Shown here piece after piece: positions 49,314 through 61,479 of a stretch of DNA of 64,000 nucleotides. This DNA comes from Leucoraja ocellata (taxonomy: Eukaryota): positions 6,138,001 to 6,202,000 of the forward strand of contig JAWMAR010000082.1 of NCBI GenBank assembly GCA_036785375.1, written 5' to 3'. Each line of letters begins with the position of its first letter. Position 1 is the first letter of the stretch. The notes below the pieces were generated by a model that ran no database searches, was not told the DNA's origin, and saw only the letters and a program-made list of their open reading frames with translations. Both the position numbers and the translations under genes were made by a program.

Positions 49314-50788
49314 TGTGTAGGAAGGAAATGCAGATGATGGTTTACACCAAAGATACACACAAAATGCTGGAGTAACTCAGGAGGACAGGCCGTATCTCAG
49401 GAGGAAAGGAATAACTGATGTTTCAGTTTGAGATCCATCTTCATTCTGAGTTGGAGGAGAGGGAAACTAGAGACATTAAAAGGTACAGAACAAATCAGGG
49501 CCAACACCAATGACCATGGAAATGTGGAGCACACAATGGTTGATTGTTGCGTGTGGAAGAGGTGATAACGAAGGGACACAAACGGTGAAACTAGCAAGAT
49601 GGCTAGGGTGGAGGAGCAACGGAGAGAGAGAGAGAGAATGCCAGGGTTACAAAATTAGAGAAATCAATATTCATACCACTGGGTTGTAAGCTGCCCAAGT
49701 GAAATATAATGTGCTGTTCCTTCAATTTGCGTGTGACAATAGATAATAGACAATAGACAATAGATGCAGGAGTAGGTCATTCAGCCCTTTGTGCCAGCAC
49801 CGCCATTCACTGTGATCATGACTGATCGTCCACAATCAGTACCCCGTTCCTGCCTTCTCCCCAAATCCCTTGACTCCTCTATCTTTAAGAGCTCTATCTA
49901 AATCTCTCTTTAAAGCATCCAGAGAATCGGCCTCCACTGACTTCTGAGGCTGAGAATTCCACACATTCACAACTCTCTGGGTGAAAAAGACTCCCCCAAC
50001 ATCGGGAACATGTTTCCTGCCTCCAGTGTTCCAATCCCTTAATAATCTTATATGTTTCAATAAGATATCCTCTCATCCTTCTAAACTCCAGTGTATAGTA
50101 GCCCAATCGCTCCGTTCTTTCAACATATGACAGTCCCGCCATCCCGGGAATTAACCTCGTGAACCTACGCTGCATTCCCTCAATAGCAAGAATGTCCTTC
50201 CTCAAATTTGGAGACCAAAACTGCGCACAATACTCCAGGTGTGGTCTCACTAGGGCCCTGTACAACTGCAGAAGGACCTCTTTGTTCCTATATTCAACTA
50301 CTCTTGTTATAAAGGCCAACATGCCATTCACTTTCTTCACTGCCTGCTGTACCTGCATGCTTACTCTGTGACTGATATACAAGGACACCCAGATCTTGTT
50401 GCACCTCCCCTTTTCCCAACCTGCCACCATTCAGATAATAATCTGCCTTCCTGTTCTTGCCACCGAAGTGGATAACCTCACATTTATCCACATTAAACTG
50501 CATCTGCCTTGCATCTACCCACTCACTCAACCTGTCCAAGTCACCCTGTGTACTCATAGCCTCCTCCTCACAGTTTACACTGCCACACAGCTTTGTGTCA
50601 TCTGCAAATCTGCGAATGTTACTTTTAATACCTTCATCTAAATCATTAATGTATATTGTAAATAGCTGCGGTCCCAGCACCAAGCCTTGCGGTACCCGAC
50701 TAGTGTGGCCTCTGACAGTGGAGGAGGCCCAAGAGAGAAAGGTCAATATAGGAATGGGAAGTGGAGTTAAAATGTTTGGCAACCGGGA
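49314..50788 (-). mobile_element. Penelope-like element 3' end, split by a CR1 insertion
   Basis: 50699-50788 translates PVAKHFNSTSHSYIDLSLLGLLHCQ and 49648-49737 continues TRKLKEQHIIFHLGSLQPSGMNIDFSNF (GIY-YIG C-terminus). The UTR and terminal repeat run to 49314. Confidence 0.85.
49738..50698 (-). mobile_element. CR1 LINE 5'-truncated copy (same subfamily as 6361-6990)
   Basis: VPQGLVLGPQLFTIYINDLD...FADDTKL...LYRALVRPHLEYCAQFWSP, with an (agacaat)n tail and frameshifts. Confidence 0.93.
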
Positions 50789-52134
50789 TTGTATTGCAAA
50801 CTGTATTGGTTACCATAGCTTTTATTTGGAAAAATTGAATGGAATTCAGGAAAAACTATTCAACATAGAAGTATTTTCAGCCAAGCAGAAGAGGGTGGTG
50901 TCAGCTAAACCTGGCTGTAGTGTTTTAGGACTGCAGTTTCTGTGGCTCTGCAGGAAACAAGACAGACAGTTTGTGCGCAGGAAGCTCCCACACACCATCG
51001 AACATCTTTGTTTCATGTTACATGGAGTGAGGAATAATCATCGCCCTGGAAAGCAGGCCAACATATCTGGGGAACTTGTCAGCCTTCAGCCTCATTATTT
51101 TCAGTGCACCATTTTTCTGGCAATAGAGATTATTTCAAGTTCCTCCCTTCCCATAGCCCCTTGATTACCTACTTTTATTGGAATGTCTTTCTGTGTTTTC
51201 TACCATACAATGGAAAATAATTACTTGAAACCGCTGCCATTTCTCTCTTTCCAATTCTCAATTCCCCTGTCTCACCCTCTAAAGGATTTATGTTAGCTAC
51301 TCTATTCCCTTTACTTTTTTTTAAACTTTCTTCCCTCTTTTCTATTTGTTCTTTCTTTTATGACGGCGGCCTCTATTATTAATCTCCAAGCCCGCGGAAA
51401 TAGGTTCTCTCAATCCATCATTACGCCTTATTATCTCGAAATTTCAGCCAGTCAGCCCAAAACATTATAGATTCAATGAAACATAACCCCAGTTTATGCA
51501 GCTACGCCTCAAAATTTAACCCATGGCACATTTTGCACAATTCCATTGCATCCTTTCTACAAGGTGACCTCCAGAGTTTCTCAAAGTATTCCAGATATGG
51601 TCTAACCAGACCCAGATATTTTTGTGGCATAACGTCTACTGATTCATAATCCAGTTATGAGGCATAATGAGGATTCCAATAGCCTTATTATTTTCTGTAC
51701 CTGTGTCTGACATTTTAATGATCATTGCATGTGACCGCTTCAGGTCTCCTTGAACCTCTCCTGCTTCCATTCAAAATGAAGACTTGGGTTTTCCAGAAAA
51801 GGTTCACAGCATATGTATGATTCATGTTTTAAATTTCAAATATTTATCTCTCAAAGAAAGTCAGAGAGCTGGCTATAATTAATCTCCGAATATCTCTGCG
51901 GTCTCCCAAGCTGCAGGATAGAGTAGACAAAAAGTTAAACATTCCACTCAAACTCAAGTAGATGGGGTATTTTTTAAAACAAACATGTAATGAAGCAAAA
52001 TAATGTATCAAAGGTTCACGGCTTTGTAATACAAAACAAATGCAATTTTAGAATAGCCGTGAAATATTAATATTAAAAATGAAGCAAGAATATGGCCTTG
52101 TGTAATGCTGATAATACTCACCATTGACCAGACT

Positions 52135-52228
52135 TTAGACACAAAATGCTGAAGTAACTCAGCGGGCCAGACAATATCTTTGGAGAAAAGGAATAGGTGA
52201 CATTTTGGGTCGAGACCCTTCTTCAGAC
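52135..52228 (-). mobile_element. Penelope-derived short repeat
   Basis: tagacacaaaatgctgaagtaactcagcggg...ttttgggtcgagacccttcttcagac. Confidence 0.75.
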
Positions 52229-52268
52229 AAAACCAATCTCCCATGGTTCCAACTCTCCAGTTACCTGA

Positions 52269-58149: not shown

Positions 58150-58232
58150 AAAGATAGACACAAAATGCTGGAGTATCTCAGCGGGACATGCAGCATCTCT
58201 GGAGAGAAGGAATGGGTGACGTTTTGGGTCGA
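58150..58232 (-). mobile_element. Penelope-derived short repeat (left part), the target of the LTR insertion
   Basis: aagatagacacaaaatgctggagt...gtgacgttttgggtcga. It resumes after the LTR element as gacctttcatcagact (61208-61223). Confidence 0.85.
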
Positions 58233-58436
58233 TGTAAAGAAGTGTCATCAACACACTGTGTCTTTACTTCACTTTATTCATACTGTAACATACATTACTG
58301 CACTAGCTGTACGTGGTCTGTCACGGGAACTAGAGAGAGATCAGTGGGTGGGGAGGTTGTAATTATACTTGTGATATGGGAGTGGTTAGTAGTGGTGAGG
58401 TCACTATGTTAAAGGTACATGCACATATCATCTACA
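58233..58436 (-). repeat. 3' LTR (204 bp)
   Basis: Differs from 60998-61202 by one substitution and one 1-nt indel. The minus strand contains TATAAT and AATAAA. Confidence 0.97.
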
Positions 58437-58448
58437 TCCTTCCCCTTA
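58437..58448 (-). promoter_or_regulatory. Polypurine tract
   Basis: The minus strand reads TAAGGGGAAGGA immediately before the 3' LTR TGTAGA. Confidence 0.92.
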
Positions 58449-58505: not shown

Positions 58506-60950
58506 TTACGCAAAGTCGCCATAACGGACAGGCGGCTTGTCAACGCGTCCCGACCGGGTTCGCATCCCGCCATCTCCCCTCCCTGCAGGAAGAAAAGGAG
58601 CAGGTGCAGGTGCAGGTGCAGGTGACCGAACCGGAACGGGGGACCCGGGAGGGGATGGAGAAGACGGACAAGAAGGAGGGGACGCGGGCGCAGTAGCGGG
58701 CAGACGGACAGGCGATGGAGGGTGAGATGGGGGAGAAGTCGGCTGATAGAGCTGAGAAGGCAGGGACCGAGGCATGCGAGGAGCGGCGGGAGGGGTGGAA
58801 GACTGCAGCGGCGGAGCAAAAGGGTCCGCGGGAGGAGGTGGTGGCTCGTTGACAAGCCGCAGGTGCTGTCGTGACCGGCGGTAAACGGTGCTGTCATGGT
58901 CGACCAGATAGGACCAAGGCGAACCTGCGGAGCCGACAACGGTGGTGAGCCTGGAGTGACCGGAGGGGGACTGCATTCGGACAACTTGACCGGAGAAGAG
59001 ACTCGGGAGAGGACGGCAGGACTTATCATGGGAGCGCTTCTGGATTTCATGCTTAAGGGCAATGCGCTCCTGGACAGCAGCGGGCTTGAGGACGGAGGGC
59101 ACGAGGGAGCGCTGGGCCACCGGGATCGGGGGCCTCATGGTGCGAGACACGAGTCGCTGCGCAGGGGAGCCCATGACAGGGTCGCGGGAGATGTTGCGAA
59201 GGTTAAGGAGGGCAAGGTAAAAGTCAGAACGAGACAAACGACAATGTTCCAGCAAGTCTTTGGCACTGCGGACTGCGCGCTCTGCCAGGCCGTTGCTCTG
59301 CGGTTACTCCGGGCTACTGGTGTAGTGGCGGAAATTCCAGCTGGCCGCGAAATCCCGAAACTCGTGAACTGGCTGCCATTTGCTGACTGCAGACTGGCCG
59401 GGGAGCCGAAGGTAGCGAAGTGGCGGCGCAGCTTCCCGATGACGGCCGAAGAGGTGAGGGAGTGCAGCTGGTCAACCTCGAACCAGCTGGAGTAAGAGTC
59501 GACAAGGACCAGGAAGTGCTTGCCACGCCACTCGAAAATGTCAGTGGCAACCGCCATCCAGGGCAGTTCGGGAGCAGGCTGCTGCAGAAGCGGCTGCCGT
59601 TGCTGGTGGGGAGCGAGACTACAGATGGAGCAGGCAGAGGCCCTCTCCCGGATGTACTGAGCCATGCCGGGCCAGTAGAACTGGCTCTGAGCGTGAGACA
59701 AAGTGGCCTCAGCCCCAGGATGACCGCAGTGGGCGGCCTGAAAATAGTGGTCGTGCAGCGCAGTAGGTACAACCACCTTGTGTCCCTTCACAACCACACC
59801 GTCGTGCAGCACGAGCTCATCCCGCACCAGGAAGTAGGGCACGGCACCTGCCGGCAAAGCGGAGCAACGGTCCGGCCAGCCCTGCTGGATGACGGCAGCA
59901 AGCTGTTGCAGGGCAGGATCATCGGCAGTGTGCTGGACCAGGGACTGCATCTGCTGTGAAGGTACAATATTGACTTTGAGCACCATCAAGTCAGATATTT
60001 CATATGGGTGGTGATCGGTGGACGTTAGTGGTGTGCAGGACAGCGTGTCGGCCACGAACATGTCCTTGCCTTTGCGATAGACAATCTCGAACGTAAAACG
60101 CTGGAGCTGCAGCATCATGCGCTGCAACCGGGATGAGGCAACGTGGATCGGCTTGTTGAGGATGGTGACAAGCGGCTGGTGGTCGGTCTCGATGGTGAAA
60201 GTGTTGCCCAGGATGGAGTCCTTGAACTTGGAGCAGGCAAATATCACAGCCAGCAACTCCTTCTCTATCTGAGCATAGCACTGCTCGGCAGGGTTCATGG
60301 TGCGGGACGCGTAGGATACAGGCAGCTGCAGGCCATCGTGGAACTGTAGACAAGCGGCACCAAGACCGAACTGGGAGGCGTCGCAGGTGATGACAATGGG
60401 ACACTGGAGGTCGACAAATTTGAGCGTGGGGGTGCTGACCAACCTGGACTTCAGGACGTCAAAAGCTCTCTGGTGTTGAGAGAACCAGGCCCAGGCAGTG
60501 TCCTTCTTAATCAACTCCCTCAGGGGCGCGCTCAGCTCGCTGAGGTCGGGGATGAACTTTCCCAGGTAATTAACCATGCCCAGGAAACGTTGCAGGCTGG
60601 GCACGTCAGTAGGTGAAGATATTCCAGAGATGGCAGACGTTTTCTGCGGGTCGGGCTTCAGCCCCGAGGCTGCAAAAACGTGGCCCACATAAGTGACCTC
60701 CGGGACGCGGAATCGGCACTTCTTGGGGTTTAATTTGAGGTTAATCTTCCGGGCCCGGTCCAGGACTTGGCGGAGGTTGAAGTCGTGCTCAGCAACATCC
60801 TTACCGTAGACCAGGATGTCGTCAACGATGATGGCACATGGTAGACCGGCAAACAGTTGCTCCATTGTCCGCTGGAACACCTCGCTGGCAGAGTTGATCC
60901 CGAATGGCATCCAGAGGAACCGGAACCTGCCGAAAGGGGTGCTGAAAGTT
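58506..60950 (-). pseudogene. pol: Truncated, disrupted Gypsy pol (partial RT, RNase H, integrase)
   Basis: RT: TFSTPFGRFRF, IIVDDILVYG, FLGMVNY. RNase H: CDASQFGLGA, YAQIEKELLA, TDHQPL. Integrase: HCGHPG...CSIC, VDSYS, QSNGLAERAV and C-terminal RTRSGRVDKPP. Lesions are SDNG to SANG (59381-59383), a frameshift at about 59360 and a TAA at 59304-59306. Confidence 0.93.
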
Positions 60951-60997
60951 CTGGTCTCCAATTGGAGGCGTGGGCTCGAATCCCACTTCTGACACCA
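60946..60997 (+). other. 52-nt copy of the 3' half of tRNA-Leu(CAA) including CCA (extended primer-binding site on the - strand)
   Basis: aagttctggtctccaattggaggcgtgggctcgaatcccacttctgacacca matches vertebrate tRNA-Leu(CAA), as recalled, from the anticodon loop through the variable arm, T-arm and acceptor stem to CCA. It abuts the 5' LTR. Confidence 0.9.
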
Positions 60998-61202
60998 TGT
61001 AAAGAAGTGTCATCAACACACTGTGTCTTTACTTCACTTTATTCATACTGTAACATACATTACTGCACTAGCTGTACGTGGTCTGTCATGGGAACTAGAG
61101 AGAGATCAGTGGGTGGGGAGGTTGTAATTATACTTGTGATATGGGGAGTGGTTAGTAGTGGTGAGGTCACTATGTTAAAGGTACATGCACATATCATCTA
61201 CA
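60998..61202 (-). repeat. 5' LTR (205 bp)
   Basis: Near-identical to 58233-58436 and followed on the - strand by TGGTGTCAGAAGTGGG. Confidence 0.97.
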
Positions 61203-61479
61203 GTCGAGACCTTTCATCAGACTATTGCTCTTTACTTTCTGCCACTGAGCCACTTCTCTATGGATCTCATCTACTTTTACTTTGTTGGAACAATGTGACA
61301 CTTGGGCCTTGTCAAATGCTTGGTTAAAACCAATGTGGACAACATTGCTTCAAAATGCAATTATATAACGCTGTTTTCTTTTTCCATCATCATGTACGTA
61401 AATGATGTTTGTTTATTTATTTTCTTAACAATGATAAAACGTTAACAACTACTTCCTGGTTCAGGCACATTACTGCAAA

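Follow-up and report, generated by a model that had tools for sequence, protein, structure and literature searches.

Tails of tRNA-Leu(CAA) at LTR ends in Leucoraja ocellata: probable dead-end plus-strand strong-stop DNAs of Mag-like Ty3/Gypsy retrotransposons

We analysed a 64,000-nt stretch of the Leucoraja ocellata genome (the window: assembly GCA_036785375.1, contig JAWMAR010000082.1, positions 6,138,001 to 6,202,000, forward strand) and found an element whose 5' LTR runs directly into a copy of tRNA-Leu(CAA) and from there into pol. This locus very probably represents an integrated dead-end plus-strand strong-stop DNA of Mag-like Ty3/Gypsy retrotransposons, of which the genome holds hundreds. 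The CCA end, splicing and base signatures of the tails show that they were copied from mature, modified tRNA. Our confidence in the joining step is lower than in the overall route.

The window element and its tRNA-pol junction

The element occupies positions 61202-58233 on the minus strand. It is a young Mag-like Ty3/Gypsy copy with LTRs 99.0% identical to each other (1 mismatch, 1 gap). Its features, in window coordinates, are listed below.

61203..61207, no strand: target-site duplication (TSD), 5' side, TCGAC
60998..61202, minus strand: 5' LTR, 205 nt, TG...CA; 97.6% identical to the LTR of the short-PBS copy L278
60980..60997, minus strand: first 18 nt of the primer copy, CCA to tRNA position 59; normal copies have the first 7-8 nt only
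60946..60979, minus strand: read-through copy of tRNA-Leu(CAA), position 58 to 35
60979, plus strand: tRNA A58, putative m1A site; correct base in the window copy, altered in 41/81 loci
60962, plus strand: variable-loop site (loop C) with a putative m3C-type signature; T in the window copy, C in 27/27 tRNA gene loci, altered in 43/55 loci
60946..60950, minus strand: 5-nt microhomology common to the tRNA copy and RT
58509..60945, minus strand: pol remnant (C-terminal RT, RNase H, integrase)
58437..58447, minus strand: polypurine tract (PPT)
58233..58436, minus strand: 3' LTR, 204 nt
58228..58232, no strand: TSD, 3' side, TCGAC
58155..58227, no strand: host repeat interrupted by the element; empty paralogue in the window at 52136-52250

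Two TG...CA LTRs, a PPT, a TSD, the pol order RT-RNase H-integrase and an rve domain in homologues place the element in Ty3/Gypsy, and the Pfam domains RVT_1, RT_RNaseH and Integrase_H2C2 were detected in the window pol. A Leu or Ser primer, a 5-bp TSD, short LTRs and one or two ORFs (a 1,398-aa frame in a relative) agree with the Mag lineage, a putative assignment made from element features and source names such as K02A2.6-like. Its protein relatives were 'K02A2.6-like' Gypsy polyproteins with a single ORF, found in fish (52-59%) and in marine invertebrates, with one partial match (70%) in skate. The window integrase is disrupted near 59350 (frame change) and near 59305 (stop).

The interrupted host repeat is one that we take to be SINE/LINE-tail-like. 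TCGAC is single in its empty paralogue (~52190-52250) and doubled around the element, which supports the clean integration with a 5-bp TSD claimed in the initial annotation. Beyond the element, a stop-free frame of 240 aa was observed at 50442-51161 (+).

Positions 60997-60946 directly abut the 5' LTR and are complementary to mature tRNA-Leu(CAA) over 52 nt, from the CCA to A35, after which the sequence passes directly into RT at TFSTPFG. This had been read from the window alone and was borne out when 60946-60997 was aligned to the tRNA genes, the match to host tRNA extending far beyond 18 nt. No whole tRNA was found in the window by ARAGORN or Rfam. Two differences separate the stretch from the commonest Leu-CAA gene, one at 60975 (tRNA T54), private to the window copy, and one at 60962, where the variable-loop C was read as T. 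AACTT immediately precedes the same RT bases in the close relatives L018, L019 and L139, so the 5-nt microhomology proposed for the junction is real. Because these 5 nt are shared with RT, 47 of the 52 nt are certainly tRNA-derived and the exact stop can be fixed only to positions 40-35. Taken alone, the window copy has the CCA and the loop change, and its splicing is ambiguous owing to the microhomology. From the coordinates we computed that the 52 nt replace ~1,715 nt, which in the relative L278/L019 hold the leader, gag, protease and N-terminal RT.

One contig from public run X1, 152 nt long at a depth of 40 (60853-61004, 4 differing letters), spans the junction. With this contig, the long match to host tRNA and the lack of that match in full-length relatives, none of the three refuting outcomes named in the initial annotation arose. 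X1 is probably not the window's source run and differs from the window in the flank too. Its contig covers the junction only, and no single record covered the whole element. Run X22, considered as further support, was set aside as it covered the tRNA-like stretch only. LTR plus flank was present in runs X1 and X15.

Primer copies across the genome and their template

When the junction was used as a query against the skate's own genome, we recovered the window locus and many LTR ends with ~50 nt of the same tRNA complement, the junction being different each time. Exact pattern searches of the 3.44 Gb found 350 read-through sites (at least 28 nt of primer copy) among 1,325 sites with LTR plus 18 nt. 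The reversed read-through pattern had 0 matches in 3.44 Gb, and the control for the 18-nt pattern likewise had 0. With at least 350 such sites in the genome, the aberrant event envisaged at first was not a rare one. In the read-through loci the tRNA complement begins at CCA precisely at the LTR end. Several LTR families contribute primer copies, and their junctions are scattered. Pairs of near-identical loci on the same contig, 50-330 kb from each other, were frequent (e.g. L101/L102, L142/L143), and raw counts are inflated because of segmental or assembly duplications.

For closer comparison we fetched the first 60 of the 1,325 sites and 60 further ones out of the 100 that were listed for the 350; 11 loci whose flank and junction repeated those of another were removed. 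These samples are first-listed loci on large contigs and may retain a few duplicates. Among the 57 unselected unique loci, 29 extended at least 27 nt, 5 extended 20-26 nt and 23 stopped at 18. A loose read-through pattern for other primers, which excluded tRNAs with A at position 71 and hence left out Ser, gave 8 matches versus 6 in the control (2 Leu-AAG/TAG tails, 3 Leu-CAA variants and 3 chance-like). In L221 and L223 the LTR ends are followed by tRNA-Leu(AAG/TAG) read-through copies with position 58 altered in both; a second primer and mis-priming on a short PBS are possible readings. The tRNA gene search also brought up L062 and L072, primer copies with two extra bases at the LTR junction instead of the exact CCA complement. 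The read-through pattern was absent from the viral contigs searched and from 80 metagenome loci.

The tRNA genes were compared with the tails. An intron after G37 and a C at the third variable-loop base are common to all 27 Leu-CAA gene loci. A58 is present in each of the 26 whose 3' end is whole, and CCA follows none of them. In the 81 unique read-through loci position 58 was A in 40, T in 24, C in 9 and G in 8 (41/81 changed), and the first 100 listed of the 350 sites, counted by eye in the cDNA sense, gave T 50, A 31, G 10 and C 9. Loop C, scored in 55 loci, was T in 34, C in 12, A in 6 and G in 3 (43/55 changed). At the remaining sites, those not fixed by the pattern, 14/736 cells differed (~2%), with 1/234 in 14 young elements; comparison of the hot sites with the other sites gave Fisher p values of 1e-34 and 1e-47. 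The unselected sample alone gave 14/29 versus 11/253. A third variable site (A/G) corresponds to a difference among the genes. We rejected CpG decay as an explanation for the two hot sites, since neither is CpG. The splice junction was crossed at four sites, two of which are one duplicated locus reaching ~66 nt.

The scrambled bases at A58 and loop C are as would be expected for m1A and m3C, names that we take from the signatures. Arrest plus misincorporation is described as the RT signature of m1A in the section of PMC4787781 used here. Published m3C at e2/47d concerns Leu-CAG and Ser in zebrafish and human, Leu-CAA not being among them. The Leu-CAA genes here have the 3' loop context in common with Leu-CAG, and we predict that loop C is m3C in Leu-CAA. 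The initial proposal that RT read past m1A58 on a mature tRNA and that the product was joined by microhomology onto RT is supported.

Ending rates per nucleotide were 0.013 before loop C, 0.078 at loop C and 0.44 at 39-37, with tail ends blurred by a few bases through microhomology. Loop C was the end point for 11/73 tails, and 14/17 of those going as far as 39-37 ended there; most tails are over by these positions. The largest group of ends (24/53) lies at v2-44. This peak counts against our best explanation, as it matches no modification that can be named with confidence.

Among tails reaching tRNA position 32, a changed base was seen there in 2/3 independent ones (L288/L289 at G000:C80, L160, L004), and the longest tail goes beyond position 26 and stops near the D-loop; further modification signals at position 32 or beyond are possible, at numbers too small to call. 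Leu-CAA genes with introns are clustered (L195-L214; G000:C46, C2329), and 11/27 loci have A57 instead of G57. The read-through pattern demanded G57. A57 was found in just 1/29 unselected tails, so A57 genes seem to supply few of the primers.

Short PBS in normal copies and the joining of tails

We examined the PBS of copies that retain a leader. Among relatives of L156 with an intact leader, 38/39 have 6-7 matching bases after the LTR, the exception being the L156 duplicate. For the window's U5 group, the 100 of 123 matches that were listed comprised, by eye, 76 with a short PBS, 14 with at least 17 nt, 3 with 14 nt and 7 unrelated; the pattern under-counts read-through copies, its last letter excluding A at PBS position 23. 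L278 has an 8-nt PBS. In the remoter families the PBS is ~8-11 nt in most listed sites other than full primer copies, and 34 of the 80 metagenome relatives match the skate tRNA for 9-15 nt, none longer, their own hosts' tRNAs being possibly different. Normal copies have a PBS of about 7-8 nt for tRNA-Leu, and the normal length of 18 nt assumed at first was wrong; relatives were also without the long match seen in the window. Because intact copies carry 7-8 nt, a perfect 18-nt 'PBS' is mostly itself a fossil. Progeny PBS are shorter than the primer copy, with a few copies having inherited 17-18 nt, and the primer appears not to be inherited normally, as in Ty1/Ty3.

The 81 read-through tails lead to coding sequence in forward (36) or inverted (9) orientation, back to the U5 end (5), into a fold-back (2) or elsewhere (29). 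In the last 29, element sequence could not be recognised within 150 nt of the tail, and since most of those examined lack a TSD, these loci require another joining route. Of 28 short-tail loci, 19 join straight onto coding sequence, 11 of these inverted. In 30 two-LTR read-through loci we found 20 exact 5-bp TSDs, 3 with one mismatch, 5 without and 2 uncallable; two minimal U5-return loci (L147, L162) also have exact TSDs. Microhomology, scored in the 34/110 loci for which a relative at least 85% identical was found, averaged 1.8 nt versus 0.43 in shifted controls (n=34). The 11/34 junctions with no microhomology, a point against our best explanation, may have been made by RT or by host end-joining.

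Several junctions were seen more than once. Some are same-flank duplicates (10 read-through pairs; L156/L229, L006/L007, L014/L015, L023/L024, L028/L161). The others (L163 versus L023/L024; L140 versus L141) carry different bases at the modified sites and have a different second switch, suggesting junction hot spots. Re-mobilisation of shared junctions was rejected for all except L074/L075, the rest having the same flanks or being independent events. That the tailed LTRs are 3' LTRs with unremoved primer was likewise rejected, with element 3' sequence upstream in 0/110 and a purine-rich 12-mer upstream in 3/23 host-join loci. L156 and its duplicate L229 carry a 40-nt tail back to the U5 end, then a normal short PBS and leader; a primer copy can therefore precede a long element. 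In L016 the tail runs nearly directly onto an LTR start, followed by integrase-region sequence and another LTR.

We propose the following route. Starting from a normal copy with its 7-8-nt PBS for tRNA-Leu, the plus strand copies the LTR and runs on into the attached mature tRNA, as its products show. Synthesis ends at 59 in fewer than half of the fossils and otherwise passes 58 with frequent misincorporation, to be over almost always by 39-37; m1A58, variable-loop m3C and m1G37 are the putative blocks. Tailed molecules would normally be discarded, because the short PBS would not allow in-register pairing of the tail, and by analogy with Ty1/Ty3 the primer would not be inherited. Occasionally 0-5 nt of homology would let a tail end join internal sequence, forward or inverted, the U5 of its own molecule or host DNA. 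These joins presumably arise by mis-priming within the particle; where a TSD is lacking, host end-joining is the likely route. Those products that keep both LTR ends intact integrate, as seen, with a 5-bp TSD. At the window locus the tail would have met AACTT in RT, with the loss of ~1.7 kb.

Other explanations differ in how much of this route they replace. Recombination with genomic DNA (a tRNA gene, pseudogene or SINE) as the source of the tRNA piece, or a long match that is a family trait combined with an ordinary deletion, is exceedingly improbable: 27 Leu-CAA gene loci exist as potential donors, but they have introns, lack CCA and are invariant at 58 and loop C, the two hot sites are not CpG, and the PBS of intact relatives is short. 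Another idea makes the window copy the founder or a member of a non-autonomous family whose PBS is very long, starting from its two LTRs, PPT and long PBS, all kept, and from the recurrence of some junctions. We consider it very improbable, as the window locus alone matched both sides of the junction among 40 scored matches and, except for L074/L075, recurring junctions share flanks or differ at modified sites and in the second switch. A TRIM- or LARD-like family would comprise multiple copies that share one internal structure but differ in TSD, and these were not found; the founder role raised in the initial annotation thus left no sign. A more substantial possibility, though still an unlikely one, is that RT made the tailed strong-stop DNAs and host double-strand-break repair (NHEJ/MMEJ) joined them, like Ty1 cDNA captured at breaks in yeast. 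It concerns the joining step alone and may be true for the host-join class. Homology of 0-1 nt in 19/34 junctions and the frequent lack of a TSD in loci with LTR, tail and host DNA fit this, as do the yeast 3' LTR insertions at breaks, 40/56 of which have cDNA-only extra bases in the data cited from PMC11372161. However, the exact TSD in 20/30 two-LTR loci suggests that integrase acted after the join in the window and most two-LTR loci, and certain internal sites received inverted joins repeatedly, with homology of 5 nt (L123/L124, L104, L132), which fits priming inside the particle.

The remaining alternative concerns a second tRNA-complementary block (box 2) in the leader of the window's clade, complementary to tRNA 50 to v5. 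Here read-through would be a working route: a tail reaching the variable-loop C would pair at box 2 and transfer in register, and the leader would be an eroded, periodically refreshed copy of the primer. We regard this as rather unlikely. Box 1, 8-19 nt and box 2, here a complement of tRNA 49-v9, occur in this order at 986 sites with many different spacers, versus 0 in the control. In 21 fetched loci box 2 extends to ~12 nt with one mismatch, mostly 60-90 nt before gag. One read-through tail (L191) is joined in register at box 2, and in 3 of the 21 loci (L282, L284, L285) a 17-18 nt primer copy is spliced to a normal leader. Pooled spacers resemble the skipped tRNA segment more than 500/500 shuffles do, the copies being related and not independent. 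Against this, the in-register join was seen in just 1/81 read-through loci, box-2 conservation runs past the tRNA-complementary part, and box 2 could act at initiation only. It is absent or gapped in 18 loci of remoter families (only 3/18 were matched by at most 32/300 shuffles, and ~5 of the 18 look like chance matches) and was absent in the 80 metagenome relatives; a search for covariation with Leu-AAG/TAG gave 0 matches and hence no sites to compare. The predicted tRNA-leader duplex of -36 kcal/mol, computed on the real sequence alone, carries no weight. Judged from sequence, a pairing role for box 2 has about an even chance, and a role in strand transfer would be unlikely. Somewhat more doubtful still is the full scheme, in which the clade's leader would be an eroded copy of ~38 nt of tRNA, far primer copying would be part of normal replication, the variable-loop m3C rather than m1A58 could set the working strong stop via box 2, and the primer would keep rewriting the leader; dated fossils would then be a record of germ-line tRNA modification over time. 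Four metagenome relatives (L327, L329, L345, L362) have a short complement of the T-arm 5' strand 3' of the PBS, or a degenerate ~28-nt match, and these blocks are possible analogues of box 2.

Known systems and implications of the fossils

We compared the tailed fossils of our preferred dead-end route with systems described in the literature. In Ty1/Ty3, as presented in the parts of PMC5371799 cited here, the PBS is short or split, the first plus strand copies tRNA past the PBS and the primer sequence is normally lost; for Ty3 the first plus-strand strong-stop DNA is described as a dead end, without inheritance of the primer. The Ty3 overrun totals 12 nt and was observed in particles, whereas the tails here measure 18 to ~66 nt, pass several modified bases, are integrated by the hundreds in a vertebrate germ line and are known from genome sequence. 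The HIV-1 minor strong-stop products P3-P5, among them the stop at modified position 37, likewise show that RT can pass m1A58 and halt at the anticodon-loop modification. They are minor, and the long product is called inactive or unable to integrate in the relevant passages of PMC13191261 and PMC8599865, whereas about half of the fossil primer copies pass 58 and many have TSDs. Reviews state, in the portions drawn on here, that strong-stop DNA copied beyond the T-loop cannot complete transfer or integrate.

Mag-lineage elements share with ours a single ORF of ~1,350-1,400 aa, LTRs of ~200 nt, a 5-bp TSD, a tRNA-Leu primer and the order RT-RH-IN, but the sections of PMC3286476 cited mention neither tailed fossils nor a second box. 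In Ty1 cDNA capture at double-strand breaks, LTR cDNA with cDNA-only extra bases also enters chromosomes by end-joining, although this was a laboratory break assay for which the cited part of PMC11372161 reports no long tails, modification signatures or two-LTR products. tRNA-derived sequence within LTR elements is known from Helenus/Cassandra TRIMs and the mosquito element cqgypsy_1 (PMC10886601, PMC3286476). The Helenus tRNA-like piece, however, lies inside the LTR and is not complementary to its own PBS (PMC10886601), and cqgypsy_1 is a single element that has two complete tRNA-like sequences at its PBS (PMC3286476); in the excerpts used, neither is described as a primer-copy population with RT signatures. 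Mapping of m1A and m3C by tRNA-seq relies on the same site-specific arrest and misincorporation, according to the portions of PMC4787781, PMC11417395 and PMC11233606 used, but here the RT is endogenous and acts in vivo, and the signatures are fixed in the genome. PMC4516963 has no mention of tRNA or PBS. We found no report of genome-wide primer fossils with modification signatures in a search that covered subscription and older virology papers thinly. Retroviral vector studies of the 1980s-90s reportedly saw tRNA inserts at deletion junctions, and single laboratory precedents probably exist.

The hundreds of integrated cases show how the plus-strand stops of an animal retrotransposon are distributed in vivo; the genome has recorded both modifications of the RNA and an intermediate of replication that usually leads nowhere. 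Non-inheritance of the primer, as in Ty1/Ty3, would be extended to a vertebrate, in a model testable by genome comparison alone. In this group a perfect 18-nt 'PBS' marks a defective copy and not the active form, and can mislead annotation and predictions of tRNA-fragment silencing.

Contigs from runs of organisms A, B and C, a weak measure, had mostly T at the loop site when weighted by depth, which suggests that the same fossils are present in these organisms. A contig of run X9 matches the window flank (61203-61320) but not the LTR end, a hint of an empty site in organism B.
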